This document shows positions 6,442-51,031 of a DNA stretch of 64,000 nt, in pieces (within the stretch, counting starts at the first letter, position 1; every line of letters begins with the position of its first letter). Source of the stretch: Eledone cirrhosa (Eukaryota); NCBI GenBank assembly GCA_964016885.1, contig OZ024754.1, forward strand, positions 26,040,001-26,104,000, read 5' to 3'. The position numbers and the translations under genes were made by a program. Under the pieces are notes generated by a model. The model ran no database searches, was not told the origin of the DNA, and saw only the letters and a list, made by a program, of their open reading frames with translations.

Positions 6442-7940
6442 CAAAATGTTTTATAAATATTTGACTTGACCAAGGATAATATACCTTAACGGTTCAAGTT
6501 ATCCCTGGAAAGTGAAGGGAAAAGAAAAGTCAGATATTTAAAATTATTAATATGATTATGCAAATGATGTTTATATTAAAGGGCTGAAAAAACGTTATTT
6601 TAGACGCTATGGACAATTTAAATAATTATGGTAAGGAAGGAAGAGAAAGAGAAAGGAATAGCGTTAATTTGGGGGGTTGGGAATTTGTTACCTATATTAT
6701 TAATTATAATATTGTATATAAATTATATGAAGAATTATGGTTGTAAGTATTTTTATCTTATTACATTAGGATAGGTTATATGTATATATCTATATATATA
6801 TATTAATAAGTTGCGTATGTATTGATTGTTTATATAACAAATATGAGTTACGAAGAATGTTGAAATTTTATTTTCAAGTTGTGAGATTAGAATAATTTGT
6901 GGGTTAAAAAATGTTCAACATTGAGAATGTTTTCAGAATATTGTTAATTTAACGAAGATATATAAATTATCAAACAAAAATTGTTAAAGAAGAAGGAAAA
7001 GGAAGACCACTTAAACATTAATTTGGGGGAAATATATTCAGACATTTCTCTATATTTATATGGAGAATTATTTATCTTATTATAATAATATATAAATATC
7101 TATATATATGAATGTATATATAGTGTATTTTGCAATACACTGTATGCTTAATTAAAAGTATTTCGAAGACCTTATGTTATTGTTTTAGAGTAGTGACAGT
7201 CTCACTTACTTTAAATTTTCAGCAAACAGGGGGAGATAAAGCTGACAGAGCTATGTTTCGTACTGATTGGTACTTATCAAAGCCAAGTACCCCACCTGTT
7301 TGCTGAAAATCATGAATGTTTGATTCTATATATATATTTTAATAATAGCATATGTATTTTTTTATTAAAAGGATAGTTTGTTTATAATATGAGTTACGGG
7401 GGATGTTGATTTATAAATAAATAAATAGGTGGTTGTTCATAATATAAGTTACTAGGGATGTTGATTTTATGTAAATAAATAGGTAGTTACAATTGATAAG
7501 GTTTAAATTAAATTAACAGAGTTATGTATAAAAAGTTTTTAGGATTGAAAAAAGGAAAGAAAACTCCGATTTTTTTTATTAATCGCTAGTGTGGGATTAA
7601 TTATTTATTCTAAAGAAATATGAATATTTAAACATCATCTTGAATAGGATACATTTTGCAAAAAACAGTTAATGGTTAAACGGAAAAAATGAAACGAAAT
7701 TTCATTTCCCACTCTTAGTATGGCTGTCACTTAAATATAAGTATGCACACGCACATACATACATGTATACAGACGTACAGTAGTATGTATATATATATAC
7801 ATACATGCACACATATACATGTACGTATGGATTCACCGAACATTTATCACAATGCCCGGTATGTTTGTAAACAAACATCCCGTATTAAGCCGTAGTGTCC
7901 AGCAACCATCGTTGCTCGTTTGTTCAACACTGACAAAGGA

Positions 7941-7983
7941 ACGCTGTACTAGTTTCAAGCTTATTAGCTATCGTCAGCAACGT
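7941..7983 (-). ncRNA. Minimal type I hammerhead in a ~340-bp repeat (7685-8025) related to the 16-kb palindrome
   Basis: Minus strand: ACGTTG CTGACGA tAGC taataa GCTt GAAA CTAG TA CAGCGT. Stem I extends via TGTTCAAC/GTTGAACA. Confidence 0.8.
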
Positions 7984-8297
7984 ATACCCTCCTGCCAGAT
8001 TGTTGAACATATATACTTACCTTAGTTAATGGTTATTAATATACATTTAAAAATTAGCTTTAGAGGGTGTCATTAGAAAAATAAAGAATTAAGGAAAATA
8101 TATATTTGATATATATTTATCTTTATCGAGCCCTCTTTGGATTTTAGTCTTCAAATTTATTATTGTTACTATATATATATATATATATATATGTGTGTAT
8201 ATATATATATGTATGTATGTATGTATATATATATGTGTGTATATATATATATATGTGTATGTATATATATATATGAGTATGTATATATATATATGAG

Positions 8298-8395: not shown

Positions 8396-8442
<47 letters not shown>

Positions 8443-8472
8443 AGAACAAAAGATGGTTAAAAGAGTTCCATG

Positions 8473-8543
8473 TATTTTATTATGCGCATTTCAAAAACAA
8501 GTATCATCATGCAATAATATCTGTGTTTTCATCAGATAAAATA
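8473..8543 (-). ncRNA. Type I hammerhead ribozyme motif (direct repeat copy A)
   Basis: Minus strand: TATTTTAT CTGATGA AAACA...TGTTTTT GAAA TGCGCA TA ATAAAATA. Confidence 0.8.
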
Positions 8544-8906
8544 GGAAGACATGATATGAAGGTTAAAAAACACATATGAAAAGTAGTTTTAGATTGATGT
8601 GTGATTTTGGGAAAAATATTATTTTTTTAAGGGGGGGGGTGAAAAAGAAGAGGAGATGAGAGTAAAAAGTGGAGAGGGAGGAGTATAATGAGGAAGGATG
8701 AGATAGGAGGAGAGATGAGTGCATTGCTTTATTGTACTACAATAAAACTCACCTCCTACATATATATATATATATGTAGGAGGTGAGTTTTATTGTAGTA
8801 CAATAAAGTAAAGCAATGTAGATATCGGATAAGAAGCACTCTACAGTTTGTAGGACTGGAGTATACATAATATATAAGATCAAAAGATGGTTAAATGAGT
8901 TCCATG

Positions 8907-8975
8907 TATTTTATTATGCGCATTTCAAAAACAAATATCATCATGCAATAACATTTGTTTTCATCAGATAAAATA
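8907..8975 (-). ncRNA. Type I hammerhead ribozyme motif (direct repeat copy B)
   Basis: Minus strand: TATTTTAT CTGATGA AAACAAAT...ATTTGTTTTT GAAA TGCGCA TA ATAAAATA. Confidence 0.8.
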
Positions 8976-9126
8976 AGACATGATATGAAGGTTAAAAAAC
9001 ACTTGTGGATAGTGCAGTTTTAAATCAACATATGAAAAGTAGTTTTAGATTGATGTGTGATATTGGGGGGAAAACATTTCTGAGGGGGGAGGGGGGGATT
9101 GCAAACTTGACTGTCACCACATATTA

Positions 9127-11047: not shown

Positions 11048-14000
11048 CTAGCCGAAATGTCGACCAGATGCATAATTTGTACTTACCCGATAAACTTGTA
11101 CGTATCGCGTGGGCCATCGGACTGTTCTTCCAGATTTGGTGTGTCGGGGTTGTGCAGAATTTGCCGTGTTTGTGTCGGGCAAAGTTGTTGGTGAGTCTGC
11201 TGGAGAAACGGTGGGTACTGGTGGCAATTCCTGTTCTATGAACGCTTTTTTTAAACGATCAATGGAGACGGTATTTCGTTTCCCGTTCAAGTCGAGGTCG
11301 AAATACTTGGGGCATTTCTGTATCACCTTATAGGGCCCGGAATACGGCGGACGAAGTTGCGATGGAATACCGTCATTTCTAACGAAAACATGCGTCCATG
11401 TATCGATGTCTTTTGGTGTGTGTGAAGTAACGTGCTGTTGTTTAGGGGCTGAAGGAGACAGATGCGACATCGATGACCGTAAACGGTGCACATATTTTGT
11501 AGGGTCTGGAAGTTCTTGTGGCGAAACAAGAGCAATCATTTGTCCGGGTAGAGTGAGTACGGTGCCATACACCATTTCAGCCGGAGAATGTCCGACTCCC
11601 TCCTTAACAGTGGAACGAATACCAAGAAGAATGAGTGGGAGGTATTCGAACCAGTTAGTGGAGTCTTCGTAAGCCTTGATAGAACTGACGTCCTCTATCC
11701 GTAGTGATGGTCGCAGGTGTGCCGAAACGCGAAACCCAGTGAAACACTAGCGTTTTGGCGACAGTTTCCGCAGTAATATCCGTCAGGGGAAAAGCTTCTG
11801 GCAGCGAGAAAATCAGTCGACACAGGTGAGAAGATGAGTGTAGTTGTGAGAAGGAGGCAAAGGTCCAACGATGTCTATATGCACATGTTGGAACCGTGCA
11901 TCAGGTGTTGCGAAAGAACCGATCGGGGCTTTGATGTGCCGGTGAATTTTCGCCTTCTGGCACGCGATACAGTTCCTAGCCCATTCGCGGGTGTCCTTGT
12001 TGATGTTGGGCCACACAAAGCGGGCAACCATCAGTTTCTGCGTGGCGCGGACGCCAGGATGTGCCAGAGAATGCAGTGCCGGGAAAACGTCGAGTCGATG
12101 TTTCCGGGGCACGTATGGGCGCTCGTGGCCTGTGGAGATGTCGCACCAAATATAACCCGAAGAAGAGGGCAGCGGGCATTCCTTCAATTTCAAGGATGAT
12201 TTCCGGAGTTGCAGCAGTTCTTCGTCATTCTGTTGATCCGCTGCAATCCTCTGGAGGTCGATAGTGGCAGTGGTGTGGATTGCGTTAAGCTCCATCCGCG
12301 ATAGGGCATCAGCTACTGAGTTGGTGGCACCCTTAATGTACCGAATATCAGTAGTGTACTGAGAAATGAAGTCCAGTTGTCAGACCTCCCTGGGTGAGTG
12401 TCGGTCAGGCTTGGCATTGAACGCGTACACTAGTGGTTTGTGGTCGGTGTATATAGAGAACACACGACCTTCTAGCATGTGTCGAAAATGCTTGACAGCA
12501 AGGTATGCTACCAATAATTCACGACTGAATGTGCTGTACTTAGTTTCGGCGGGTTTTAATCGCTTAGAGAAAAAAGATACAGGTCGCCAAATATCGCCAG
12601 AGAGTTGTTGAAGCACACCTCCAACTCCGAAATCGGATGCATCAGTCAATAAACACATTGGGGCGTCAGGTTTGGGGTAACTCAGCATTGTAGCCTCGGA
12701 CAACATTTTCTTCAACTCAGCGAAAGCGGTACATTCTTTTTCGCTGAACTTGATGTTTGCGTTTTTGGTTGTACGCTGCCGCAGCAAATCTGTGAGTGGT
12801 TGGGCTGTCTCTGCACAGTGGGGTATAAATCTTCTGTAGAAGTTTACCAGGCCAAGAAATTCTCGCAGTTTGCGGAGAGATGTAGGTTGTGGAAAATCAA
12901 TGATGGATTTGACTTTCTCCTTAAGTGGGCGAATACCATCTTTGTCAATGATGTGTCCCAGAAAATGAAGGGACGCAACTCCGAACTCACATTTGCTGGG
13001 GTTGATAATTCCGTATTCAAGCAAACGTGTGAATAGGAGATCAAGGTGTTTCTCATGTTCTTCATCGGAGCTGCTGGCCACCAGTAAGTCGTCAATGTAT
13101 GCGTATACAAAAGGTAGACGTCTGGTGACTGTATCGATGAATCGCTGGAATGTCTGCGCTGCATTTCGCAAACCGAAAGGCATACGCAGAAATTCGAACA
13201 TTCCAAAGGGTGTTGTGACTGCGGTCTTTGGAATATCTGCGGGCTCAACGGGTATCTGATTGTAAGCTCGCACAAGATCGATCTTCTAAAATATGCGAGC
13301 CCCGTGCAGCGAGCTAGAGAAGTCCTGTAGATGAGGCACTGGATAAGAATCAGGAACGGTGCAGTTGTTCAGTGCACGGTAGTCGCCACAGATTCGCCAG
13401 TCGTTCGACGACTTCTTGGGAACACAGTGTATGGGTGAGGACCAGTTGATGCTGGACGGACGTATGATGCCGAGATCCAGCATGTGCTGAAATTCTTGTT
13501 TGACGGACTTCAGCCGGTCTGGTGGTAGCCTTCTAGGTCGTGCAGCGACAGGTGGGCCGTGAATTTTTATGTGGTGTGTGACGTCATGTTTTACAGGGCA
13601 AGCGTTGAATAGTGGTCGAGCTACGTCTGGGTATTTGTTGATGATGTGGTTGTGCCGGGTTGTTGTTGTCGATCGTGAAATGACTGGACTGACTGTGGCT
13701 GTCCTAGCGGCTATGCCACGCACAGCGAGACCAGTGGAGTTGTCAACGAGTCGTTGGTTTTTCAGATCCACTAGAAGCGAGAAGTGCTGAAGAAAATCAG
13801 CTCCTAAAATAGGGGTCGGCAGCTTAGCCACAACGAATACCCACTGGAAAGTGCGGCGTAGTCCCAAATTTAGTCAGGGACTGTTCTCCGTAGGTCGGAA
13901 TATGTGAGTGATTCACCGCCAGGAGCCAGGCTGGTGTCTCTCTCCTTTTTCCAGGAACGCAGAAAACCGGGATGATGCTGACTTCAGCACCGGTGTCGAC

Positions 14001-14913
14001 CAGGAAACGCGATCCTGAATGAAAAATAGGCGACTTTGGTTATGAGGGCAAGAAACGTCCGTCGCATTCAGTTTCTGGCTGTGTCGTTTCCCTGATTCGT
14101 TTTCGAAACAAATGAACAGGGATGGCTGCACTTTTGCGCTCGTCTCCCGAATTGTTGGTCGTACCAACACATTTCTGGTGAATCCCGAGATGCGCTGGGA
14201 CTTCTTGAGCGACCACCAAATCAGCGAGTTCGACTGTTGGACCGACGCGTGGCAGGGTTGCCCAGTGACAAGGCCTGAATTTGTTGTGTCAAGGCCTGTA
14301 TCTGTGTTGCCTGCTGTGCCAGTAACTGGTGTAGATCGGGCATCTCTGTGGCACTGGTGGGCTGAAGAAAAGGATTGGTGGGAGGCACGGCTGGCGTCAC
14401 ATTCGCTAAAGTTGAGTACGGATGTGGTACCTCCATGATCTTATCTGCCAGCTCGGCGAGTTCTTCTATGGTGGTGGACTCCCTGGTGGATGCTAGTACA
14501 ACTTGTGTGGCAGAAGGAAAACGCTGGATGAAGAGTTGCTTGAAAATTTCATCCGGGAGTTTATGTTCTCCCAGGAGCTGCTTCATTCTCCGTAGGAGTT
14601 GCGTCGGCTTTTTATCTCCTAATTCCTCCGATATGAGGAGCTGGTGCAAGCGCTTCTGCTGCGACTCCGACGTCCGCTTAACTAATGTTCTTTTAAATGT
14701 GTCATATGACACAGAGCCGGCTGGTGTTAAAATGAGGTCTCGAACCTCATTCATAATCTCCGGAGACATCGAACCGATGACATGTGTGAGACGGGATGCC
14801 TCGTTAACGATCCGGTTCGATGCGAACTGCGCTTCGATGTGCGCGAACCACAGTGTTGGATCGTGCACTCAGAATGGTGGAATCCTTAATGTAAATGCCG
14901 CCCTGACTGCCAT
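11048..14913 (-). pseudogene. Gypsy gag-pol remnants
   Basis: ORFs 14221-14868 (gag; upstream TGA in place of Trp after RIPPF), 13286-13867, 12380-13273 (RT/RNase H), 11813-12295 and 11048-11575 (integrase). Confidence 0.9.
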
Positions 14914-15928: not shown

Positions 15929-16042
<114 letters not shown>

Positions 16043-16094
16043 AGTATGTGTGTATACGTTCATACATATATGTATACAGACGTACAGTAGCATG

Positions 16095-16162
<68 letters not shown>

Positions 16163-16340
16163 TATACATATATATACACATATACATACAGGTACACATA
16201 CATATATGCACGTATCAGTTTAGCAGACGCTTATTATAACGCCGCTTTCTTCGTTTGTAAACAAACTGAACAGCCTGAATTTTTATGCCGTACGGTGTTA
16301 AGGCAACCACGTCACCTTTTTGTTCAACACTGACACAGGA

Positions 16341-16383
16341 ACGATGTACTAGTTTCAAGCTTGTTAGCTATCATCAGCACCGT
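16341..16383 (-). ncRNA. Minimal type I hammerhead (left arm)
   Basis: Exact reverse complement of 16582-16624. Confidence 0.85.
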
Positions 16384-16581
16384 ATACCCATCTGCCAGAT
16401 AGTTGAACGTTCGAAAGTATATACTTTCCTTATGAAAATTAACGGCTGAGCAGCCTAATTTGCATATCGAGTGAGCTAAGTCGGCCAGGCACACTCGATA
16501 TGCAAATTAGGCTGCTCAGCCGTTAATTTTCATAAGGAAAGTATATACTTTCGAACGTTCAACTATCTGGCAGATGGGTAT

Positions 16582-16624
16582 ACGGTGCTGATGATAGCTA
16601 ACAAGCTTGAAACTAGTACATCGT
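16582..16624 (+). ncRNA. Minimal type I hammerhead (right arm)
   Basis: ACGGTG CTGATGA tAGC taacaa GCTt GAAA CTAG TA CATCGT. Stem I extends CTGGCA/TGTCAG and GTTCAAC/GTTGAAC. Confidence 0.85.
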
Positions 16625-16804
16625 TCCTGTGTCAGTGTTGAACAAAAAGGTGACGTGGTTGCCTTAACACCGTACGGCATAAAAATTCAGGCTGTTCAGT
16701 TTGTTTACAAACGAAGAAAGCGGCGTTATAATAAGCGTCCGCTAAACTGATACGTGCATATATGTATGTGTACCTGTATGTATATGTGTATATATATGTA
16801 TATA

Positions 16805-16942
<138 letters not shown>

Positions 16943-17056
16943 CATGCTACTGTACGTCTGTATACATATATGTATGAACGTATACACACATACTTACATT
17001 TAAGTAAGTGCCGTACTAAGAGTGAGAAATGAAATTTCGTTTTCATTATATTTCAA

Positions 17057-17094
<38 letters not shown>

Positions 17095-17217
17095 GATAAA
17101 TATTGATGCAATTCAATTCAAGCACTCAACGTACTTTTTCCACATAGGAGTGACGGAGTAAATATCGAATAAGGAAAAGCGAAGTAGTTTCAGATGTTCA
17201 AGTCCTTTAATAATAAT

Positions 17218-17393
17218 TGTTTCTACTTTAGGCACAAGGCTAGCAAATTACCCAGTGCATTACTGGTACTTTATTTTATCGACCCCGTAAGGATGAAAGG
17301 CAAAGTCAACCTCGGCGGGATTTGAACTCAGATCGTAAAGGGACGTAACTATGCTGGAAAGCATGGCGTCCGACCTTCTACCGATACTGCCAA
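17218..17393 (-). mobile_element. tRNA-derived SINE (family A)
   Basis: A box TGGCAGTATCGG, B box GAGTTCAAATCC, 3' end AAGTAGAAACAATTATT; about 18 full or partial copies in the window. Confidence 0.85.
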
Positions 17394-18640
17394 ATGCTGT
17401 GATATATATTTCAGTGACGACAGTGTCGTCACTGTGATATATATTTCAGTGACGACAGTGTCGTCACTGAAATATATATCACAGCATTATTATTAAAGGA
17501 CTTGAACATCTGAAACTACTTCGCTTTTCCTCATTCGATATTTACTCCGTCACTCCTATGTGGAAAAAGTACGTTGAGTGCTTGAATTGGATTGCATCAA
17601 TATTTACCCTAATAATTTAGCTCCGATTAGTTGAGCGCTCTATGATGTGGTGGAGAAGAGAGGAACCAACCAAGAGCTACCCCGGAAATCCCCTCTACCA
17701 TGGGGATGAAAACCCCTGACACTAGACGGGCGTAATAGTAACTTTCGGCAGGATAAATACGCGGAAACAAAAAATAAGATAAACCCCTATTTTCCTGCAC
17801 CAAATCGCATTTGAACAGAAGCCCCCTCAATTCAATCTATACATGGACAGATGGACAATCATATGGATCATTTTACATATATGTACTCTGTGTTTTTGCA
17901 TTTATTCACTATTCGTTCTGTTCTTTTCTTTTCTTTTGTGTACTTTATGTCTGTTTTTTTATTCTGTTCCATGTGATGGAAATTATGACCGTGTAACAGA
18001 TTGACTAATGTGGTTTGCCCCCCGTTATAATGTACGGCACTGCCGTTCAATATGTGGATAGGGTAACTGTAACACTAGAATCCCTCCCAGAACTTATTAC
18101 TTAAACATCTCTCTCCATATTATTTACTCACTTCAATCTATATTGTTACTCAATCCGAATTATCACTTGGAAAAAAAATTTTTTAATTTAGAATTTTTTA
18201 ATTCTTAATTGTTTAATTTATAATCTCTGATATTTGATCTAGGATTTTAACTTTTATTTCCAACTCTCACTCTTAACTTACAATGTAAAACCATAGTACC
18301 TAGAATTAAGTTTATTTTCCCTTATGAGTTGATGGTCAGTCTTACTGTCAACGCTTAGTGAAAGGTAGTATTATGACCTATAAAAACTAACACCCTCCCA
18401 TCCCCTCTGGCTTTTGGGTAGCAGTAAACTTTGGCAGGGCTTAGTGGGCCACTGACAGCGAATTTCGTTGAAATCTGCGGTGCTAATGGTCAACTTCCTT
18501 CGGACATGCGCTTGCGCAGACCGCTGGGGGTGAATTGGTACTCACAAGGGAACGGATGAAAAACCCAAAAGCACGAACTTCATCCGTTCCCATGTCGATT
18601 CAATTTGGATTGCCTCGGAAACAACCTTATTATGTAACAA

Positions 18641-18714
18641 GCTGTCTGATGATGACACGACACTCGCACACAGAACAGTGTGGCCAGTGTCGTCACTGAA
18701 ATATATATCACAGC
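18641..18714 (+). ncRNA. Type I hammerhead ribozyme motif
   Basis: GCTGT CTGATGA tgacACGACACT...AGTGTCGTcact GAAA TATATA TC ACAGC; AUC triplet. Confidence 0.8.
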
Positions 18715-18796
18715 ATTATTATTAAAGGACTTGAACATCTGAAACTACTTCGCTTTTCCTTATTCTCTATATATATATGTGTGTGTGTGTGTGTAT

Positions 18797-18911
18797 ATGG
18801 GCTTGCAATCGAAAGGTTGTGAGTTCAATACTCGGACCGGGTGATGTGTTGTTTCCTTGAGCAAGACACTTTATTTTACATTGCTCCAGTTTACTCAGCT
18901 GTAGAAATGAG
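18797..18911 (+). mobile_element. tRNA-derived SINE fragment (CORE/Deu-like central domain)
   Basis: B box GAGTTCAATAC followed by TTGTTTCCTTGAGCAAGACACTTTATTT. Confidence 0.6.
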
Positions 18912-22404: not shown

Positions 22405-25217
22405 ACCCCAGACACCTCCACCTCAGACACCCCACCAAACATCTCCGTCCCCACCCCGCCGGAAACCACCACCCACCCAGACAACTCCTCTAACACCCCC
22501 ATGGAAACCGTGCGGCCTGATCCCCGGGAGACGAAGAGGTGAGTGTTTTCTTCTCCTCTTTTAACTTTTCAGAACCAACATGGCCAATATAAGAGTTGGG
22601 TGTGTGAATGAACGCGGCCTGGGGATGCCCTGGAAACAACCTCAGGTTGCACAGTATGGATGTAGTAGCCATTTGCGAGTCCAGGATCCACAGCGAGCGA
22701 CAGCTGGCCCCCATCTTCGATGACTTTGAGATCTACGCATCTCTCTGTCAGCCGGGGGGTGGGGGCGGGGTTGCCGTTTTGCTGCGGAAACACCTGGATT
22801 AGCACTTTAGTTAAACAGCACTTGACAGGGACCATTGTCAAGTTCTGCGAAAAGCCGATTTCAGCCGCTGAGATAGGGGACGCGTTGAGCCAATGCGGCA
22901 AACGCAAATCTCCAGGTCTCGACGGTATACCCTACGAATTTTACGTAGCAATGCCGGACTTATTCTCCGGTCTCCCGGAAGCGGTCTACTGCAACTGGCA
23001 ACAGAACGGGAGAATTTCCAGTTCTGTGACTGGGGGTGTAGTCACACTAGTCAGGAAGGACGAGAATAAGGGGGATGACATAGGCAACTTCCGGCCCATA
23101 ACTCTGCTAAACACAGAGTTACAGATTTTGGCCAAGGTGTTTGCAAAGAGGCTGGCGCTTGTCGTCGAGAACCTGGTGGGAGAAGCGCAGACATGTGCAA
23201 TCCCAACCAGGTCCATACACGACAACCTCCACCTCATGCGATACATCATAGAGAGGGTAGGGTGTAAACCCGGCTTCGGTGGGGCCCTGATCAACTTGGA
23301 TCAGTCTAAGGCTTTCGATAGGGTTGACCATCGTTACCTGGATGCAGTGCTCGAGGCGGCAGGCTTCGGACCCGTGTTCAGGGGCTGGATTGCTCCAATG
23401 CATAACAGCAACATCTGCTCAAGGGTTAAGGTGAACGGCTACCTCTCGGAGCCGTTCCATATAACGCGATCCATTCGACAGGGATGCCCCCTCTCCTCCG
23501 TTCTGTACGTATTGACTCTCGAGCCACTACTGCGGAAGTTGGAGCTATTGCAGGGAATCCCTCTGGAACCGGGACTGCGGAAAGAGGCGTCGGCCTACGC
23601 CGACGACTTGACAGTTGTGGTGTCGAGCGCCTCGCAAATCGAGGAAGTCGGCACCTTACTGAAGGAAAACGAAAGGTTCACAGTAGCGAAGCTGAACCGG
23701 GACAAGTCCATCGGTTTGCAACTCGGATCGTGTAGAGGCAAACCGATGCCTTCCGATGGCGTCGTCGGACGCTGGACGGAAGGACCAGTAAAGCTGCTCG
23801 GGGTCTGGTTTGGTCCGGACCTCCAGGTGGAGAAGAACTGGAACGAGGTGTCGGCCAAGGTGTTTGCACTCACCCAGAAGTGGGCCGAGTGCAAACGATC
23901 CTTGAAAGGTCGAGCGGAGGTGGCGAACACTTTTATAGCGTCCGCCATCTACTACCGCTTGACCGTCGTGCCTTGTCCAGCCAAAACGCTCGCCAAAATG
24001 GAGCGCGCGCTTTTCCAATTCCTTTGGAAGAGGCGGGCTCCTTTGGTGAGAAGATCCATCTGCTGCCAACACCCTTCTAACGGAGGGCTGGGGATTCCGT
24101 GGCTGACGATGCGCAAACACGCGCTCAGGCTGCGGTATCTCTACGTATTCCTCACCGGACAACCGGTGTGGGCCCCGTTCGTGAGGCGAGCCTTCCCACG
24201 ACTCGTCTCGCTGACCGAGCTGCAGTCCTGGGTCAAGCAAAGACCGAGGAAAATGGGCGACTGGCACATCGAATGTGCTCAGGCGCTCACAGCCCTCTGG
24301 CAGGCGGACTTGGCGATCAGTGGAGACTCCACTTCGTCATTCTATAGAGGGTTGATCCGCAGCAAGTGCGACGATGTGCTCGGTGAAACTCTGGGCGTAG
24401 AGGAAGACGAACTGGCCAGTCTGTTCGGTAGGACCTTCCGCCCGGGACCGATAGACAACTTCCAAAAGTCCCTGGCCTGGCAGTGCTACCGAGGAGCTCT
24501 ACCAGTTCGAGACAAGCTCTACAGACATGGGCGCCCGGGCAGGGACCCTGCAAAAAAGATCTGTCCGAGGTGCGTACGAGACGAAGAAACCGTCGCGCAC
24601 GCATTCATACACTGCCCGGGCGTCACCGACTTGTGGGGCTATGTGGAACGACTATTGTCGCGGGTGGGACCGATCCAGTTGACCACCGAGTCCATTGTCA
24701 TGATCAAACCGCCACCCTCCTTCAAAAACGAAGGAGAGGCGGTTTTCCTTTGTGTGATAGCTATGGCGAAAGAGGTTGTATGGTGGACAAGGTTGAAAGG
24801 GCTGAGGTCAGACACCTTTCTCTCCGGCCGGCAACTGATTCTTTTTTTCAAATACCACTTTGGAAGAAGAATCAGGATGGAGAGAGAGGTGCTGTACCCC
24901 AGCAAGTTTTATGAAAGGTGGGTGAAAGTGGCGAGAATGGCCCGAGTGAATGGGCCTTCTCTCTATATCAGCCTGTAGGTTGAGGAAAAAGAGAAGGAGA
25001 GGAAAGGAGTACAAACTCTTTGTACTCCTGGAGATGAGGGTTGCACATTTTGTTTTCGGGGGTATGTGTTATCCATATGTAATGTCTCCCCCTATTGGGG
25101 AAAATCGATTAATTTTTAAATTGCATTTGTGATAATATTTTACACGTTTTTATTGTATGTAAACTTCCCCCTTTGTATTTGTCCCCTTCTTTTGTGCCCC
25201 TGTGGCTAATAAAGAAA
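22401..25217 (+). mobile_element. L1/Tx1-clade LINE, 5'-truncated with internal deletions of the endonuclease
   Basis: RT ORF 22720-24978 (FRPITLLN, LDQSKAFDRV, RQGCPLS, YADD, CPRC...H..C) closely similar to 58650-62111; AATAAA at 25208; starts at a (TC)n tract. Confidence 0.9.
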
Positions 25218-27477
25218 CATATCTGGTTATCTTGTACCTCTCTCTGTATAACGACCTATCTCACTCTCTCTATATATATCTCCCTTTCTTTCTTTAGATG
25301 TATATGTATGTGCGTGTGATATATATATAGAGAGAGAGTTGCAACATGTATGTAGTTTCATAGATTTTTGAGGGTAGTGAGAATAAAAATATAAACAGAG
25401 CATATAAATAAATTTACAGTAGAATAACATAACAAATATGTTTTAAATATATACATAAATAACATTACAAATGCCTCGGTAACACTACAAAGGATGATAC
25501 AATGAAAGATATATTCCTTCAATGCTACAATATTAAAGAAAATGTAAAGGAAGGGGTGAACAACGGAGCCAACACCAGAGCAAAAGACAGCAACGTCACG
25601 AGTACTGGGCAACCCCTCTAATGATTTTTGAGGCAAGCCAGCAGACTCGCAGTGTTGCCTCGGGTGATGGCGAGGCTGATGCGCTGAAATATTGTTTTAA
25701 AAGACTTTTTAATGGAAATGAAGCAAAATGGAAGCTTAATGTTGAAACTTCGAACTCATGAATTTTGCTGGCCCGAAAACTGTTCGCGTATTTTTGTACC
25801 TTTGCACGTTTATTCGTAACGTAAATAGATAAACAAATGACGCCATAAAAGGGAAATAACTCGTCTCTCATCTCTATACATTTGAACTGAAAAATCAATA
25901 CATTACAAATTCGATTTTTGCACTTGGCGTTGGTCGATTTGAAAATGCTTTTGACCGATGTCTCTGCCGGACCTTCATCTATAAGTGTAGCACTTTCACC
26001 CAAATTTGAACGTACGGTTTAGATGTGTGCCGACTGTTTTAGTAGACAGACAGAAAACCTCAGTTTTATATATCTGTTAGAACACGAAAAGTGTGAAACA
26101 ACAGAATGTTCACTTTTCGTGTTCTAACATATATGCCTAGCTTTTATAAAAAATTTTCGGGGATAGCCGTGGTGGTGGTGATCGTATGTCATTGGCTAAT
26201 TTTCAACCAATCAGAGTACCTCTCTCTATATCTCTTCCACTGTTACTTACGCCTGTTTCTCTCTATCTGTTCCGTCTCTATATATATCTCTTACTCTTTC
26301 GCTTTGCACTCCTCCCCTTCAATACCATCTCTCCCCCTCTCTATATATTTGTTACTCTATCGCTGCACGCTCCTCTCCTTCAATATATCAATTACACACG
26401 CTTTACACTCCTTTATCCCCAGCGCCCCTATATATACACCCCCCCTCTCCCGCATCTATATTTTAATGTACCGTTGCACCGTGAATATATGTGTCTATAT
26501 ATATATACATATATATTGTATATACACATTCATGTATGTGTATACACACTCATGTATGTATATACACTGGTTTTATGTGTGTATTGTAAATTTGTACTGT
26601 TAAAACACGAAACTAACATTCGATTGACACTTTGATTACCTGTACAGGCAATAGTTATTAGAATGCTGTTGAAGTGTGTATATATTTTTGGGGGACATCC
26701 TGTATATACACACATTATATATAATACAATAAACAGATAAATACACACATATATATATGAGCTTATTTAATTATAAATATTGTGAATTTTTAACTCAGTT
26801 CAATTATATATATAAATGGCTTCTACAGGACTAGAACTGTTTCATTCGAAAGAAATCATCATAATATTGAGAGGGGGGACTAGATAAAATATTTCAAATC
26901 AAATGTGTATAAGTTATAAGTTAAAATGTATAAATAGAGACGATAGTGGAGGTATATCTGTTTAGTGGAACAGTAGACGATAGAATTAAATACAGACGAT
27001 AATCTCCCTTTAATGAAACAGCAGACGATAGAATTAAGGCAATTTAAATTTTAAGCATTTGCATTTTTGCCTTTCATCGTTACGGGGTCGATAAAATAAA
27101 GTACCAGTAATACACTGTCACTAGACGACTTTCAAATTGAATTGTTGGTTCCATTTCTTTAGTATTTTCAATTGTAGTTATCTACTTAAAAAGCGTTACA
27201 CGGTTAGAGACATAATTCGTAAGTTATATCTTCCCTATTAAACCATTGCATTATTTCGCCTACAATAGAACAAAAATGAAATGTTCTTTAAAGAAACAGG
27301 AATATAACTTTATAAAAAAAAAAGTTGCATCCGCTTCTTTTATCATTGATAATTTTTTCGTTTTAATATTAATTGTTTTTTGTAGTTGTTTATATTAAAA
27401 ATCTTACTGTAATATTTACTTAAACGAAGGCAAACATCTAAACTTATAGATTAATCTTGAGCGAAGGACTAGATAAA

Positions 27478-27524
<47 letters not shown>

Positions 27525-28639
27525 GAAGAATGATAAAATTTCAAGCAAAGAGTTTAATTAGGTATATTTTGTAATATTATTAACTAATTATTATAATTAA
27601 CGCGCATATTTTGCTATCCTCAAACACGTTTTACACATGGCATGAAATATAACTAATCCGAGATGGCTAGGTTTCATCTTCTAACTGGATATAAGAAATC
27701 CATTATGTCTTGACAACAACATGAGGTAACATTATGTTATTCACAGACACACTTTGTACACTGTTCCATATCAGAATGTATTTCCGTCGTCACATTCACA
27801 AACAGTATTGAAAATATGTTCTTCGGCAAATAAAAATGTTTTGTTCATAATATTTCAACTAGCGATTGCTCTACTCCACGCACGACCACCATAAATTAAT
27901 GACCAGCTCAACACAAGTATTGGTAGAGCGTCAGACACCATGCTTTGCAGTATTGTTATGGTCCTTTGCATTCTAAGTTCAAATCCTGCCGAGGTTAACT
28001 TCGACTTTCATACTTACTAATTCGATAAAATAAAGTACCAGTAATGGACTGCCGTAATGGATTTGTGCCGAAAAATAGAAACACTATTAATGTGCAATAA
28101 GAGCAAAATATAACGACATTGCTCAATTATTTTATCTAATGTTGTAATAACACAAGGAAATGTTGTTTGTGTATTTTTTTTTATATTTGCTCATAGGCTT
28201 TTACAATTTCGCTCAGCCAACAACTATTAAAAAGTGAGTTGCTTAAGATAACAATTTAATCACAAATTGTTGCTATCTTTTAATACACTCCAACAAGTCA
28301 TCAAATTATGTACAATAAAAACAAATCTTATTAATTTGCTCAGGGAATATAAAGAAAATGTATATACACTGATAATTGCAATTGTATGTAAATATTTTGT
28401 TTTTGTATTGTATATTTTATGTTTTCTATTATGTATAATATATTGATTTAATATTGATTGTTTTTTGTAGTTGTTTATATTAAAAGTCTGAAAATATTTT
28501 TAGACATCTTACACTAATATTTATAAGATAATTTATAATAACAATTACATAATCTAATTACATTACAACGATAATTTATTATTAATATATATCCTGTTTA
28601 ACTAGAGTTATTACAAGCGTTGCCTTAAAAAAATATTAA

Positions 28640-29596
28640 ACTAGACATGAAAAATGCGCAAGCTCAAAAGTGCCACAGAATGTTATAATAAACCTTCAAA
28701 AGTGTGGGACTAGAGTTGTTGCTAAAAAATATTGTAATCATTATATATCGTACATTCTGTGGCATCCTTTATAAAAATAGCTTAAACCAACGAAGCCTTT
28801 ATTTTTACGCTATTTCACTTAGTTAATTCTTAGAGTGTAACATATAAAAATAAATACATCTATGTTTAATGTAATAACAGCTATAAATAATTACGTAATA
28901 TTATTATCATATACTCATAGTAACAAAATAATTGTGTTGAAACTTAATATGATGCTTATATGAACGATCAAATCTATAATGATAATTTCTTAAATATACT
29001 AATAGTAAAATAATTTAGTTATCTATTGTTACATTTTCATAGAACTATAATATTAACAATCGTATTGCATTATCAAATTTTTATCACTACAAACTTTCAT
29101 ATTGGAATTACCTTAAGCCACTTATTATTACTTCGCTTTCGTACTTTTACAGCTGTAGATATTGCGCTGTATCTTATATCTAATATCAATATCTCGTGGT
29201 AATTTGCATGAAGTGTAAAATAGGTTTATTAATAACTTTAATATGAAATGTATTATACAGGGCTGTGGAGTCGGCCAAAAATTGACTGGCTCCAACTCAG
29301 GATCCGATACTCCATTATTTCCTAAATTTCAGCTCCGCAGCTCTGTTATTATATTAATTAATTTATTTTATAGTTGTAAATCATATTTTTATATGTTACA
29401 CTCTAAGAATTAACTAAGTGAAATAGCGTAAAAATAAAGGCTTCGTTGGTTTAAGCTATTTTTATAAAGGATGCCACAGAATGTACGATATATAATGATT
29501 ACAATATTTTTTAGCAACAACTCTAGTCCCACACTTTTGAAGGTTTATTATAACATTCTGTGGCACTTTTGAGCTTGCGCATTTTTCATGTCTAGT
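28640..29596. mobile_element. Fold-back/MITE with 213-bp perfect terminal inverted repeats
   Basis: 28640-28852 is the reverse complement of 29384-29596; AT-rich non-coding interior; possible TA target. Confidence 0.85.
29258..29345. mobile_element. Tiny hAT-type MITE nested in the fold-back
   Basis: TIRs CAGGGCTGTGGAG / CTCCGCAGCTCTG; 7/8 TSD (G/T)TATTATA. Confidence 0.65.
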
Positions 29597-29675
29597 ATAG
29601 ATATGTTTACACAGACGAGAAAACTATATATTCTCGACTGTCTTCTAGTCCAGCAGTAGCAAGTGGTCGGAGGGT

Positions 29676-29715
29676 CGACCTGACGAAGGCCAGTCAAGCC
29701 AGAAATGCATAGACG
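29676..29715 (+). ncRNA. Minimal hammerhead, retrozyme-like unit copy 1 (29605-29865)
   Basis: CGAC CTGACGA aGGC cagtcaa GCCa GAAA TGCA TA GACG; closed distally by GTCCAGCAG/CTGCTGGAC. Confidence 0.7.
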
Positions 29716-30558
29716 CTTGTTCCCCTTGCTTCTGCTGGACACCACCGGTGTTTGCATAGCTACGGCTTCCTAAAACCGTGTTTCTTTAGAAATATGAAAT
29801 TTCTATACATATTTGTATAAAGCTATGGTTGAAGCGAAATACTATTTCTATTCTATTATAAGTTGATATATATATAAAATTAAAAGAACAAGGAAATAAT
29901 AGACAAAAATATACCTATTTTTTTCTTCAAAGTCTCGACTGCAGTTTCGCCGTATCCACTTGCTGCAATTTATGCACTATAGAAATGCACCATTGGTGTG
30001 AGATTGATAAGGCTTATATATATATATATATATATATATATACAACAGTTTCTGTCTACCAAATTTCTTCAAATACACTTGTCCTGATCAACACAAGTCT
30101 ATAGTAAAATACACTTGCCCACATATTTACTCTATATTTCTTCATCCTTTACACCAAATTCACTCTACCTTCTTACATTCTATCTCTCTCTCTAAATAGG
30201 GTCAACTTCTATTCTTTTGATTGTTTTATAAGCCAATTTTGGCAATGTCACTGTTATATTTGTAAAATAAATATTTCACTCTATTCTCATATTCCCGGTA
30301 TTGAGTTCTTTCAGTTAATGTTTGTTGTTAAAATATGTGTGTGTAATTCTATTAGTCGTTACTCTAAATTTCATGTTCTGTATTTTGTATGGTTTCAGAT
30401 ATTAAAAGACACACATATGTATATGTATATATATATATATATGTATAGAAATTTCATATTTCTAAAGAAACACCGTTACAGGGTAAACATTTAGGAAGCC
30501 ATAGCTATGCAAACATCGGGACTAACGCCCTCTGGTGGTGTCCAGCAGAAGGGGAACA

Positions 30559-30603
30559 ACCATCTATACATTTCAAGACTTGACTGGTCTTCATCAGGAT
30601 GGT
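30559..30603 (-). ncRNA. Minimal hammerhead, retrozyme-like unit copy 2 (30441-30761)
   Basis: Minus strand: ACCATC CTGATGA AGAC cagtcaa GTCT t GAAA TGTA TA GATGGT. Confidence 0.75.
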
Positions 30604-30790
30604 CCCACCCATGCTTGCAACTGCTGGACTTGATGATAGTCGAGAATATATAGTTTTCTTGTCTGTGTAAATGAGGTGATTAATCTCATTTGCATATGAA
30701 GCTGCATAAGTTGGCTCTACTTATAATAGAATAGAAATAGGATTTAACTTCAAGCATAGCTCAAGTCCAGCAGTTGCAAACATGGGAGGC

Positions 30791-30834
30791 ACTGTCCTGA
30801 TGAAGACCAGTCAAGTCTGAAATGCATAGACTGT
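30791..30834 (+). ncRNA. Minimal hammerhead, retrozyme-like unit copy 3 (30762-30976)
   Basis: ACTGTC CTGATGA AGAC cagtcaa GTCT GAAA TGCA TA GACTGT. Confidence 0.8.
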
Positions 30835-31108
30835 TGACCCCCTTACTTCAGCTGGAACCACCAGAGGGCGTTAGCCCCATTGTTTGCATAGTTACGGCTT
30901 CCTAAATGTTTACCCTGTAAACATACCATGTTTCTTTAGAAATCCGAAATTTCTATACATATCTGTATACAGCTATAGATAGATAGATAGATAGATAGAT
31001 ATATAGAAAAAAAAAGGACCATATATCGTATAGAATACACAATATATTGTATATATACTAATTACATATTTCAGAGAGGAATATGTACTCAAGATGGAAT
31101 CAGTAGAG

Positions 31109-33969: not shown

Positions 33970-36900
33970 TCAGACCAACAGAAAAGATGCCAACAGTGAG
34001 AAGTGGTCAGATCCTAACTGTTTATTGGGCAGTTTGTCAAATTCCATGACCTCACGTTTTAATGGTAGTTGATAGCAACACATAAGTTTTAAGTTGCCCT
34101 CAACACTGCTGTCATACTGGGACTTGTGCAGCAGTTTACTGTCAACTGTGTAAAATATATAGTCTACCGTAGAACAACATTTGTTGTGATATGTACTCAC
34201 TTCTCTCTGAAAAGAACCCCTCACTTTTGTCACATGTTTATACACTGATAATAAATTGAAACAATGTTTGATTGTACCCTTTTGAAAGGGCTGAAACAGA
34301 TCCTTAGCTATCTTATCACATGAATGCGAAGAAGGCTCGATATCTTCTTTTCCGGCAGCTTCATGTGAAGGTGACGTGTCTTTGTTAGCAGACTGTTCCA
34401 CAAGGCAATGCTGATGTCTTTTTTTACAAACCTGAATGTATTGGCAATGGCAGTTGATGTTTAAATGGGCTGGGAAGAAATCTCTGGGCATGTAATTGTC
34501 TCTGCCATAATTTTCATCTTCCTGCCCAGACATTTCTCGAATTAACAGGTTTTCGTAGCGCAAATAACTGGACATTAAGAAGTTGTAAATCTCACTAAAA
34601 GGTTCCGTGTTGAAATCACCACACATAATAAAAGGGTAGTAAAGGTTTTTCTCACTACTTATTTTATGTTTGAAAGAAATCTTTTCAAGCTCTGCCAATA
34701 AAAGAATGAGCTGAGCAAGTTTTACATCTCCTCGACGAGGGTTAAACAATAAGTGAGTGTTAGCCACATAGAAACGCCTGTCCCTCTTTTTAAATGCAGG
34801 ATTCCTTGGTTTTAAACCAACAATCAGACCGACATTACCACGGTCAAGAACCCCACCCTTCATGTAGTCAACTGGATGAGAAGAGAGCTGAACAAACAGG
34901 AGAATTTTGTAGAAGGTTGCACAGCCATCACTCTGATAGTTCGACTTTGGGCAGAATACACCTTCATAACCTGACAGAGAGAAAGAAAAGTTGGTCTAAA
35001 ACATCAGAGAAATATTTAATAATACATATCACCATCATTATCATCATATATTCTGTCAGTAATTCTAGAATCCCCTCTAACATGTTTATAAAATAAATCA
35101 TACCTCGCTTTTCAAATTCTGGTTTGAGAAATTTCTCATAATGGTCCTGCTGAACCTCCTGAAGGCACATAATCTGGAAAGATAATTTTACAGTTGTTTA
35201 ATTAACTCTTCCTGTCCTGTATCACATGAGGTTGCATTAGCAAGACATTCTTAAACAGTACAAAACAGCACTATGACTGGATCACATAAAAAATAAAAAC
35301 CTTTACTGTAATATGAAAGGTTTTTAGATAAATATAAACATGTTGACCCTTTCATCATCACCACCCCACCACCATCATCTAACGCAGTGATGGGCAAAGT
35401 ACGGACTGTGAGCCGCATACAGCCTGTTTGGCTTTCTGAATGGCATGCCTAATTTCAAAATTGCCTTGACTTTGTTAGTAGTGCGGCCCATCTTATGATG
35501 AGCCACATCCTATGTGGCCCACTGCTCAGGAAAGGTTGCCCATACCTGATCTAATGTCTATTTCCTGCTAGCAGGACTTAATCAGAGCTACAGATCTCTC
35601 AGATGGGTCATGACAGTATCTCATGTAGATATATTCCTGCACTCTCCAGTGTGCTGTGCATTTTCAATCGTGGCACCAGCACTAGAGAGGTTGTCATGTT
35701 AATACAACTGAAGAGCTCTCTTTACCTCTTGTTTAGCAAGTTTTCTATGGCTGGACGCTTTTCCTATCATCAAGCACTTTGCAAAGTACACTAGGTACAT
35801 TTTATTATGTCACCAACATTAGAGAGATTGCTGTGTCCTTTGTACAGTTAAGAATCCCTTCAATTTTTGACATAATTTCTACAGTTGGTTGCCTGCCAAC
35901 CACCTTACAGGGTGTACAGTGTGTTTTATGATACCAGTATTAGGGAGGTTGTTGGTTATTGACTCAATTGAAGAGTCCTCTCCACTCTAAGGAGAGGGTG
36001 GGTAATAAGAATGATGCCATGGGTAAATGACACTAGGTGAGGGAGATGACACTGGTATAATAAAAGACATATTATGATGGAAGATTTTTAGATAAATATA
36101 AACACATTAACCCATTCATTATCATATACTTCTAATGAAAAACATTACCAATGAATTTCAAATAATTTTGAAAATAGTCAAGAATTTAGAGGGATTTAGT
36201 AATATAAATTTTTCATTAATAATCTAGAATATGGAATATATCGAAGTTTCTTACATAAAATTATGATGAAAAGTATTTATATAAATATAAACACTTTAAT
36301 CTTTTAGTATTTACATTACTCTATATTTACTATTGTATTTTCACAGTAAACACTTTATCACACATAATATCGAATCTATGAGAGTTTGATATTATTTATT
36401 TTGCGAACAATACTTTAACATAAGTATAAGTGGCTGGTTATGGCTGGTTTGAACAGAAAGAGGTGAGAGAATTCTGGTTTAAATGCTAAAGGATTAAAAC
36501 AATTTTGTATCATAGAACAAGGAACAGTTTCAGGCAGTTTGATATCAAAAGGATTAAAGAAAATTATCAGAATTGTAAAGAATAACAGTTTGGAGTTAAG
36601 AAAAATTAAACTTACGTCTGGGCTAAGATGATCAATCTCTTTCAATAAACGCCATTTCCGATATTCCCAAGAGAGAATTTGGGCTTTGCAGTATGTATAG
36701 AGATAACTATGAAAATCTAAGAGATCTTGAGCAAGAATATTGTAAGACATGATGCTAAACTCGAAACCATATTGCTGTCTGGATTCTTGGTGATATTTAA
36801 TGCCAAAATTTGTCCAATACCAGTGTCGAGAAAATATCTTTTGACCTGAAACACAACCAGATTAGTAGAATAAACATATTTAATAGCAAATGAAATAATT

Positions 36901-38099
36901 ATTTCTACTTTTGGCACAAGGCCAGCAAATACCCAGTACATTACTGGTACTTTATTTTATCGACCCCGTAAGGATGAAAGGCAAAGTTAACCTCGGCGGG
37001 ATTTGAACTCAGGCCGTAAAGGGACATAACTATGCTGGAAAGCATGGCGTCCAACTCTCTACCGATACTGCCAATCTACCGATAGCAGATGAAATAATAT
37101 TAGCAAGACATTCTTGAAAAGTACAAAACAACTCTGTGACTGCATCATGTTAATTCTTAACATCCTGCACCACATGAAACCACATTAGCAAGACATTCTT
37201 GAAAAGTACAAAACAGTAGAGTGACCACATTACATTTACAACCTTATGATTGTGTGCCTACACCCTAACCATTAACACCCACAACTTCACACACAGGAAT
37301 TAATGCAATAGACATTTAGTAGGTTAAAAATCTACTCACGTTCAGTAACGGTTCTCTTTGGTGAACGGAACATTCTTGGTAGATCAGCAGCAGACTCAGA
37401 AACAGTGCCAAAGCTGGTCGATCGTTTCCTTTTCTTTGGTTGCACACACTCAGTATTATCAGAAGTAGTTTCTTGTCTGCTACAATGAGCCTCAAAACAA
37501 AAGTCACGTTTCTTCTGGCCTTTGTTTTTCATACTAAACGGACCAAAATCAATGGATGAAAGCTCATTGCAATTCGCTGAGCTACTGTCCTGAAAATTAC
37601 TATCTAAATTGTCTAATGATTGAGATTTATAATTGCAACACGTTGATGGTAAAATGGGCCAAGATTCTTGCTTTCCTTTGAAACCAAGTCGATATTCTAC
37701 GATCGGTGGCAATGATTTAGAAGAAATATTGTCATCCTTCTCATCAGACGATATCGAGAGATCAATGTAAGCTGTGGTTTTTTCTTCAGGTGGTGGTGGT
37801 AGTGATGGTAGTGGTGGTAGTGGTGATGGTGGTTGTGATGGTAGTGGAGGTGGTGATTGTGATGGTAGTGGTGGTGGTGATGATGGTGGTGGTTGTGATG
37901 GTGATAGTGGTGGTGATGTCTTGTTATCAACACCACATTCCTTGTCGTCTTCAATTATCTCAATAACATCGATATTAGTAGGAATGTTAAAGGAATTACT
38001 ACAATGGTCATCGGATATGGAAGCTTTACTGTGTAAACTGAGATCAACTACGAGATGGTTTTCATCTTCAATGACATCTTGCGGGTTATATATATTCAT
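33970..38099 (-). CDS. angel: Protein angel homolog (CCR4/nocturnin EEP family); coding exons 38099-37340, 36845-36616, 35173-35104, 34970-33970
   Basis: GT-AG introns with consistent phases. Motifs FSIMSYNILAQDL, CLQEVQ, DGCATFYK, VANTHLLFNPRRGDVKLAQL, CGDFN, TVDYIFY, GSDH. True start could lie in an upstream exon (acceptor at 38110). Confidence 0.9.
35385..35548. mobile_element. hAT-Charlie-like MITE in angel intron
   Basis: TIRs CAGTGATGGGCAA / TTGCCCATACCTG; 7/8 TSD ATCTAA(C/T)G. Confidence 0.75.
36900..37081 (-). mobile_element. tRNA-derived SINE family A with TSD
   Basis: TSD ATAGCA(A/G)ATGAAATAAT. Confidence 0.9.
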
Positions 38100-38575
38100 G
38101 TCTTCCTGCCTGGAATGGAAGAAAGAAAGGTGATTAGATGCAGATGAAATAACAAAACAACAGGCATTTCTCTGCTAAAGGAAGGGTTAGCTTTGCAGGT
38201 TCCATGACATAGGGTCTTTTTGAGACAATGTTTTACAACTAGATGCCTTTCTTGGAGCTAACCATTTTACTCAGTACAGTGTACTTTCTTTTATTGAGAA
38301 AAAATAAAAGAATATAACAAAAAACTGGATTGATAAAACTATCAAATGCCAAGTATAGCTTTATTCCTTCACCTTTTTGATGCCAACCTGCCAAAAACCC
38401 TGTTTCTGGTGGTGGTAGTAGTACTAGCAGTAGTAGTAGTAGCAGCAGCAGAAATTATTTAAACCCTAGTTCAGCCCTGTGATTAACCAATTTGATCAGC
38501 CTAGTTAAAACCAGAACCCCTGGTTCTATGAAACAAAACCATCTGTTTTTAATTAAAATCTTCCAACATTATTTT

Positions 38576-47154: not shown

Positions 47155-48742
47155 GTTAACCCTAAGTAATATACCTCCCGTATTAACTGTTAACACTAAG
47201 TAATATACCTCCTGTATTAACTGTTAACACTAAGTAATATACCTCCTGTGTTAACTTTATTAACCCTAAGTAATATACCTCCTGTGTTAACTATATTAAC
47301 ACTAAGTAATATACCTCCCGTGTTAACTATATTAACACTAAGTAATATACCTCCTGTGTTAACTATATTAACACTAAGTAATATACCTCCTGTGTTAACT
47401 TTATTAACCCTAAGTAATATACCTCCTGTATTAACTATATTAACACTAAGTAATATACCTCCCGTGTTAACTATATTAACACTAAGTAATATACCTCCCG
47501 TGTTAACTATATTAACACTAAGTAATATACCTCCTGTGTTAACTTTATTAACCCTAAGTAATATACCTCCTGTATTAACTATATTAACACTAAGTAATAT
47601 ACCTCCCGTGTTAACTATATTAACACTAAGTAATATACCTCCTGTGTTAACTATATTAACACTAAGTAATATACCTCCTGTGTTAACTATATTAACACTA
47701 AGTAATATACCTCCTGTGTTAACTATATTAACACTAAGTAATATACCTCATGTGTTAACTATATTAACACTAAGTAATATACCTCATGTGTTAACTATAT
47801 TAACACTAAGTAATATACCTCCCGTGTTAATTATATTAACACTAAGTAATATACCTCCTGTGTTAACTATATTAACCCTAAGTAATATACCTCCTGTGTT
47901 AACTATATTAACCCTAAGTAATATACCTCCTGTGTTAACTATATTAACACTAAGTAATATACCTCCCGTGTTAATTATATTAACACTAAGTAATATACCT
48001 CCTGTGTTAACTATATTAACACTAAGTAATATACCTCCCGTGTTAACTATATTAACACTAAGTAATATACATCCTGTGTTAACTATATTAACACTAAGTA
48101 ATATACCTCATGTGTTAACTATATTAACCCTAAGTAATATACCTCCTGTGTTAACTATATTAACACTAAGTAATATACCTCCTGTGTTAACTATATTAAC
48201 ACTAAGTAATATACCTCCTGTGTTAACTATATTAACACTAAGTAATATACCTCCCGTGTTAACTATATTAACACTAAGTAATATACCTCCTGTGTTAACT
48301 ATATTAACACTAAGTAATATACCTCCCGTGTTAACTATATTAACACTAAGTAATATACCTCCTGTGTTAACTATATTAACCCTAAGTAATATACCTCCTG
48401 TGTTAACTATATTAACACTAAGTAATATACATCCTGTGTTAACTATATTAACACTAAGTAATATACCTCCCGTGTTAACTATATTAACACTAAGTAATAT
48501 ACCTCCCGTGTTAACTATATTAACACTAAGTAATATACCTCCTGTGTTAACTATATTAACACTAAGTAATATACCTCCCGTGTTAACTATATTAACACTA
48601 AGTAATATACCTCCTGTGTTAACTATATTAACACTAAGTAATATACCTCCTGTGTTAACTATATTAACACTAAGTAATATACCTCCTGTATTAAATGTTA
48701 ACCCTAAGTAATATACCTCCTGTGTTAACTATATTAACTCTA
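47155..48742. repeat. 36-bp minisatellite, about 44 copies
   Basis: Unit TTAACACTAAGTAATATACCTCCTGTGTTAACTATA with a few recurrent variants. Confidence 0.95.
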
Positions 48743-50847: not shown

Positions 50848-51031
50848 TGTTTCTACTTTAGGCACAAGGCCAGCAAGTACCCAGTGCATTACTGGTACTT
50901 TATTTTATCGACCCCGTAAGGATGAAAGGCAAAGTCAACCTCGGCGGGATTTGAACTCAGATCGTAAAGGGACGTAACTATGCTGGAAAGCATGGCGTCC
51001 GACCCTCTACCGATACTGCCAATCCACTACA
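50848..51031 (-). mobile_element. tRNA-derived SINE family A with TSD
   Basis: 20-bp TSD CAGATAAACAGCAAAATAAT. Confidence 0.9.

Follow-up and report, generated by a model that had tools for sequence, protein, structure and literature searches.

A non-coding hammerhead repeat, probably Penelope-mobilised, with a palindromic insertion junction inside predicted ribozyme stem II

The window analysed here, by which we mean the whole 64-kb stretch of DNA, contains at 17089-18765 a non-coding repeat with a predicted hammerhead motif. Working from left to right, the locus consists of a (TA)n tract, an inverted truncated copy, a palindromic junction, 1.07 direct units, and a further (TA)n tract. The left flank (17059-17088), a likely target site, belongs equally to the right end of the adjacent hammerhead element (16040-17058), and the right flank (18766-18797) reads (TA)n(TG)n; the element is thus bordered on both sides by AT-rich, (TA)n DNA. 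The direct unit is 1229 nt long with a GC content of 38.6%. Its length is set by the 17-mer GAAATATATATCACAGC, which occurs at exactly 17469 and 18698, 1229 nt apart as the initial annotation had reported, and whose reverse complement lies at 17396. The direct terminal repeats (17456-17536 and 18685-18765) differ at one of 78 compared sites. The upstream direct copy (17456-17614, plus strand) includes a 78-nt tail that the right end lacks and is 5'-truncated in stem II, leaving half a hammerhead; it is followed by the non-coding body (17615-18640, plus strand) and by the downstream direct copy (18685-18765, plus strand), which ends 56 nt past the predicted cut. All coordinates given in the initial annotation were correct, as was its observation that the upstream copy starts within stem II (at the equivalent of 18685) and is preceded by its own reverse complement. 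Its description of the unit as hammerhead-bounded holds for the downstream copy, which is complete, but not for the upstream copy, which lacks CUGAUGA.

The inverted arm, on the minus strand, spans 17089-17422. Its outer part (17089-17217) matches 17486-17614, and the arm therefore goes 78 nt deeper into the unit than does the right end of the element (the equivalent of 17614 versus 17536). The inner part (17394-17422) comprises the stem I 3' strand, the cut site, stem III, GAAA, and 10 nt of the stem II 3' strand; the arm is broken between the two by a 182-nt SINE-like repeat (17212-17393, minus strand) lying at an (AAT)n run. The perfect apex hairpin noted earlier is the 21-nt sequence AGTGACGACAGTGTCGTCACT, found at both 17413 and 17448. 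The first hairpin (17413-17433) has 10-bp arms around G17423, and the second (17448-17468) is centred on G17458. This G equals unit position 18687 and tops the lower stem II helix; a CA/TG microhomology lies at the join. The duplication of a 35-bp apex segment (17399-17433 and 17434-17468), also recorded initially, is exact. Identity in fact extends over 17397-17434 and 17432-17469, giving a tandem duplication of 2 x 35 nt (17397-17466) whose 35-nt unit is bounded by a 3-nt CTG overlap. The apex folds with a z-score of -15.7; Rfam matches to miRNA families at the apex fell below threshold and were rejected as generic hairpin matches.

The complete minimal type I hammerhead motif lies at 18641-18714 on the plus strand. 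It has stem I strands GCTGT/ACAGC, CUGAUGA at 18646, GAAA at 18698, and the palindromic ATATATAT as stem III, and its arrangement predicts a cut after C18709. It thus contains the CUGANGA and GAAA core, a UH cut site, a helix I within the 4-5 bp range, a long helix II, and a short palindromic stem III. A strict hammerhead scan found seven motifs in the window versus a mean of 0.05 in 40 dinucleotide shuffles, and when a palindromic stem III was required, six versus none. Rfam at its gathering score reported nothing in the window, and gave no hammerhead match at 18641-18714 even at E-values up to 10. Where the strict form has G10.1-C11.1 adjoining GAAA, the base of stem II here is U.U followed by G-C (G.U in most of the family): a U and then a G are present, G18654 faces C18696 (T in most family reads), and an extra U precedes GAAA. 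The same U.U juxtaposition at the stem II base is common to three unrelated motifs in the window (18653/18697, 16595/16608, and 9139/9150). Above it, the 8-bp lower stem II helix (18657-18664/18686-18693) carries a 2x2 internal loop and a 21-nt upper hairpin. At -19.5 kcal/mol, stem II is the second most stable among the non-overlapping top windows of the unit (median -5.2, 250 windows); the most stable 50-nt window is a 13-bp hairpin at 18548-18591 on the plus strand (z = -6.0; -21.6 kcal/mol). No window 3' of GAAA goes beyond -10.0 kcal/mol, and stem II is the first strong helix encountered from either 3' end.

That the unit is non-coding, as first proposed, is borne out. Six-frame Pfam searches of the body, read through stops, returned no family at E-values up to 0.1, though strongly decayed remnants of Penelope-like elements (PLEs) could escape Pfam profiles. 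Across the frames there are 19-34 stops per 409 codons, and the longest open stretch is 73 codons; the RT plus GIY-YIG ORF of an autonomous EN+ PLE is absent by the same six-frame search. An apparent open frame of 50 codons over the tail was rejected because the family base at 17590 gives a stop, and the frame opened by an ATG where stem II begins is short. There are no tRNA genes within the 64-kb window.

The family was followed by aligning reads and contigs of four of 23 public runs (including X1, X4, and X21; two organisms). Many contigs cover the body at 85-99% likeness, and it is therefore a multi-copy family; a pattern scan found no copies in metagenome contigs, viral contigs, or prokaryote genomes. 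Depth was taken in 60-nt bins mapping to the same unit position, with contig depth summed, and is not a copy number. Just past the position matching the left outer end of the locus, family depth collapses from ~90,000 to 3,100 in X1, from 370 to 0 in X4, and from 178 to 36 in X21. This suggests that the left outer end is the usual, and likely the main, 3' end of the family, and hence a normal start site rather than the random end of a fold-back. Most family depth lies within an end region of ~300 nt and, in these 60-nt bins of summed contig depth rather than copy number, declines over the hammerhead without a clear step at stem II. X21 is a reduced-representation (RAD) library, and read ends at 17215, 17246, 17832, 18536, and 18602 were rejected as breakpoints because they lie at or beside AATT sites and are restriction ends (the enzyme being inferred).

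The two arms are not identical. The inverted and direct arms differ at three of 156 sites (17532, 17590, and 17607), and only the left, inverted arm carries the SINE-like insert, a feature that the initial annotation did not describe. Its inner end is slightly shortened and its target duplication is at most 3 nt. It matches 50842-51022 at 97.8%, and the repeat has 19 matches in the window, 16 of them at least 100 nt long, with several other window copies showing duplications of 10-15 nt. Within the inverted arm, only a few bases separate the insert from the predicted cut site. It may have inserted later or may stem from a template jump within the same event.

Because a fold-back read gives identical arms, the differences at three sites and the insert on one arm only mean that the inversion is genomic. 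A sequencing or assembly artefact over the whole structure is accordingly hardly credible, even though the apex is crossed by none of the 24 pieces (of ~161,000) and 15 joints (of 410) listed for the four runs, all 15 of those joints falling in the SINE-like part. The runs contain at most 0.49 of the sampled words and seem to come from something other than the source sample. The identity of the two 35-mers might also be held to favour an artefact, but at 1.9% divergence the chance of no difference in 35 nt is about one half, and identity is thus uninformative. A narrower version, in which the 35-bp duplication alone is artefactual, deserves rather more weight but is still improbable.

Several other hammerhead elements share the window. 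The neighbour at 16040-17058 is an unrelated young head-to-head hammerhead palindrome at the same (TA)n tract, with perfect 248-nt arms, an 18-nt spacer (16474-16491), and full hammerheads at 16588 (plus) and 16377 (minus); its right arm is ~59 nt longer, and a diverged single copy of it lies at about 7680-8030 on the minus strand. A third hammerhead family is represented by an old head-to-head pair at 30416-30985 (arms 77% identical, cores near 30797 plus and 30591 minus) and by a further copy at 29606-29830. Two direct minus-strand copies at 8440-9090, with hammerheads at 8535 and 8967 (432 nt apart), form a retrozyme-sized unit and have a 96-nt TA-centred palindrome (8720-8815) between them. 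Two further single hammerhead-like motifs are found on the plus strand at 9132 and 9752.

The repeat content of the window would fit a cephalopod-like host. A pair of 225-nt inverted repeats (28629-28852 and 29384-29608), 98.7% identical and 530 nt apart, is likely a non-autonomous DNA transposon, and a long minisatellite with a period of about 36 nt occupies 47217-48728. Retroelement ORFs are present at 1946-2995, 11048-14868, 22669-24978, and 58650-62111; we take these to be part of an RTE-like LINE, a Ty3/Gypsy-like element interrupted by stop codons, and two LINE copies of L1/Tx1-like type. Probable host exons lie on the minus strand at 33970-34995 and 37332-38174, the former presumably encoding something that resembles an endonuclease/exonuclease/phosphatase (Angel/CCR4-like) domain.

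The element at 17089-18765 is very probably a copy of a family mobilised in trans by a PLE, because it combines the features of the published Penelope pattern: paired direct repeats, a 5'-truncated copy in inverse orientation, a palindrome at the junction, a tail on one side only, and flanking (TA)n. The typical Penelope structure, as given by Arkhipova et al. 2013 (PMC3846280), has two direct pLTRs, an adjacent inverted 5' pLTR, a tail, and a junction palindrome, and the layout here equals it, in agreement with the initial reading of a Penelope-type insertion with an inverted 5' copy. The same insertion pattern, one-sided tail, and (TA)n bias are reported by Craig et al. 2021 (PMC8557442), and unrelated DNA lying between pLTRs and moved in trans is also described (PMC3846280). 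With the EN+ PLE insertions treated in those two papers (Penelope/Poseidon, Neptune, and Adineta vaga Pen2a/Pen3a) the element has in common direct repeats, an inverted 5'-truncated copy, a head-to-head palindrome, a one-sided tail, flanking (TA)n in which no target duplication can be made out, and a minimal hammerhead near the 3' end. In contrast to the insertions described there, it has no RT or GIY-YIG ORF, its junction lies inside stem II with a 35-bp duplication, and its tail is 78 nt rather than the published 30-40 bp; the tail of the neighbouring element is ~59 nt.

The motif itself can be compared with the minimal hammerheads of metazoan PLEs, described by Cervera and de la Pena 2014 (PMC4209133) as having a long helix II, a short helix I, and a palindromic stem III, and as residing mostly in truncated PLE copies, opposite-strand pairs included. 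Shared with these are the conserved core, the 5-bp helix I, the 8-bp stem II helix, an unpaired base after A9, and the short palindromic stem III; the extra U before GAAA, the 2x2 internal loop, and the 21-nt upper hairpin set the predicted motif apart from those in that account. The resemblance to non-LTR retrozymes (PMC7229834; bioRxiv 10.64898/2026.07.22.740005) is that of a non-coding, low-GC, head-to-tail unit with a type I hammerhead at the repeat boundary and proposed PLE mobilisation. However, the unit is longer than the retrozyme monomers described, as the initial annotation had suspected: 1229 nt versus ~300 nt for metazoan retrozymes (PMC7229834) and 51-972 nt in a search limited to a 1000-nt period (bioRxiv 10.64898/2026.07.22.740005). 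Furthermore, its motif is minimal rather than canonical, the unit is known here from DNA alone, and this one locus has a single complete hammerhead where retrozymes have two. We have filed the locus as a non-autonomous element that is likely mobilised by a PLE and operates in the manner of a retrozyme, and as neither a retrozyme proper nor an autonomous PLE. The insertion is ordinary within the known Penelope-type kind, to which it adds a non-autonomous, Penelope-dependent family.

How the junction arose is a separate matter. In the left arm, 29 nt of antisense sequence run up to 17422; the right arm tracks the sense strand back to 17456 (unit position 18685), and the two overlap by CA. The apex has a 1-nt centre and departs from the antisense sequence at the top of the 8-bp lower stem II helix, and the 21-nt loop II hairpin is absent. 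A PLE protein has been reported to cut AT-rich DNA on both strands and extend each, to start at two internal RNA sites defining the tail, and to use uncut RNA, ribozyme cleavage being unnecessary for insertion in vitro (Frangieh et al. 2024, PMC11167929). On our reading, a PLE protein would have cut both strands of the (TA)n tract, and both 3' ends would then have primed cDNA on an uncut multimeric or circular RNA, a template that fits because both arms run 23-25 nt past the predicted cut. The right-hand cDNA would have copied 1.07 units and the left-hand cDNA ~160 nt, and the two would have come together at the upper end of the lower stem II helix and been joined through CA/TG. Subsequent slippage between two CTG triplets may have produced the 35-bp apex duplication, and the left arm may later have received the SINE-like insert. 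The duplication is most simply explained as one such slippage, although repeated priming during end joining would be indistinguishable; the earlier suggestion that priming had occurred twice is thus unnecessary.

Formation of the junction by a stall in stem II and a 2-nt microhomology join is our leading but tentative proposal, with odds somewhat below even. It needs no extra step, unlike self-priming at stem II. Note, however, that two independent cDNAs ending no more than 2 nt apart need a sharp common stop, and that the right-hand cDNA passed one whole stem II plus a stronger hairpin without stopping. The microhomology is itself weak evidence, since 91 of the 1209 positions in the unit (7.5%) show a 2-bp quasi-palindrome. 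Some further information comes from the sites at which the arms differ. At 17532, the left arm has the base found in the downstream copy and in the family (T in 15/16 and 46/49 X21 reads), whereas the adjacent right arm does not; at 17590, the left arm again carries the family base and the right arm does not. These sites tip the balance slightly towards a left cDNA with its own priming event and away from one copied off the right arm, but three later mutations on one arm would explain the pattern at 17532, 17590, and 17607 equally well. Every stem II half at the locus has C where the family mostly has T (position 18696; T in 110/123 and 298/311 X21 reads), and both arms thus derive from one source lineage.

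The initial annotation had instead proposed that the nascent cDNA primed itself at the ribozyme helix, which in its simple form conflicts with the apex: loop II has to be copied before a cDNA can fold on stem II, and the 21-nt loop II hairpin should then be present. Self-priming survives only with a skip of the loop or its later deletion. In an amended version, the cDNA crosses to the stem II 5' strand from the 3' strand and either skips the upper hairpin or loses it later; it folds back onto its own ACGACACT and primes itself, after which the copied strand anneals to the second cDNA. Self-priming was put forward for palindromic PLE junctions in 2013, and how the inverted 5' end arises is treated there as a hypothesis (Arkhipova et al., PMC3846280). 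The apex sequence is compatible with it, since AGTGTCGT, to the right of the centre, can be read as the sense 3' strand and equally as the complement of the 5' strand; a cDNA spanning stem II adopts the 8-bp helix at -12.6 kcal/mol, and the exact symmetry of the arms would be accounted for. Set against this are the need to lose 23-24 nt with 1-2 nt of microhomology, the differences between the adjacent arms at three of 156 sites (the downstream copy covers one of these, and there its base is that of the left arm, a weak point), and the lack of a second example. We regard the amended version as unlikely. An origin after insertion, at the DNA level, through break repair or replication fold-back unlinked to retrotransposition, is more doubtful by far. 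Short templated duplications, microhomology, and short target duplications do occur at repaired breaks, and the apex has such a duplication with 3-nt microhomology while the SINE-like insert has an atypically short target duplication. Yet the inverted arm consists of element sequence only and ends in (TA)n where family depth collapses, and the whole is a standard PLE layout.

The position of the junction may, of course, be incidental, a PLE fold-back or template switch taking place wherever the cDNA ends and here by chance in stem II; we give this perhaps the second-best claim, albeit a minority one. Both palindromic junctions and opposite-strand hammerhead pairs 100-700 bp apart have been published (PMC3846280, PMC4209133), and stem II makes up 45 nt of the ~300-nt end region that holds most of the family depth. 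Moreover, the neighbouring palindrome at 16040-17058 has its junction 105 nt upstream of CUGAUGA with both ribozymes intact, and the pair at 30416-30985 retains CUGAUGA and GAAA in both arms. Conversely, the junction does fall at the first strong helix from either 3' end, and a scan for full motifs cannot find copies truncated in stem II, biasing any comparison within the window. The list of all palindromes in the 64-kb window with arms of at least 14 nt and spacers up to 40 nt is unbiased in this respect. It contains four centres that are not pure microsatellite (8727-8808, 16226-16739, the apex of the 17089-18765 element, and 26075-26129); two of the four are linked to hammerheads, and in one of those two the junction is in stem II, the other being that of the neighbour.

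Taking identity and junction together, the best explanation of the whole is a non-coding hammerhead repeat, mobilised in trans by a PLE, with a stall in stem II and a CA/TG microhomology join, to which we assign a probability of about 0.5. A more general statement would be that the 5' junction of Penelope-type insertions is set by stem II, with reverse transcriptase stalling in the helix or crossing it and the cDNAs being joined there. One locus cannot establish such a rule, and we consider it improbable at present; a full-text search of main articles, few of them from subscription journals, found no report of inversion breakpoints at hammerhead stem II. If it were true, the ribozyme would serve as a structural cue for insertion, whether in addition to RNA cutting or in place of it, and across the genome the breakpoints of this long non-coding family would be concentrated at stem II. 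Such clustering would matter the more because ribozyme cleavage was not required for PLE insertion in vitro (PMC11167929). The 1229-nt unit exceeds the size ceiling of the published retrozyme searches, and genomes rich in such elements, as this window is, would permit a direct count of their junctions.
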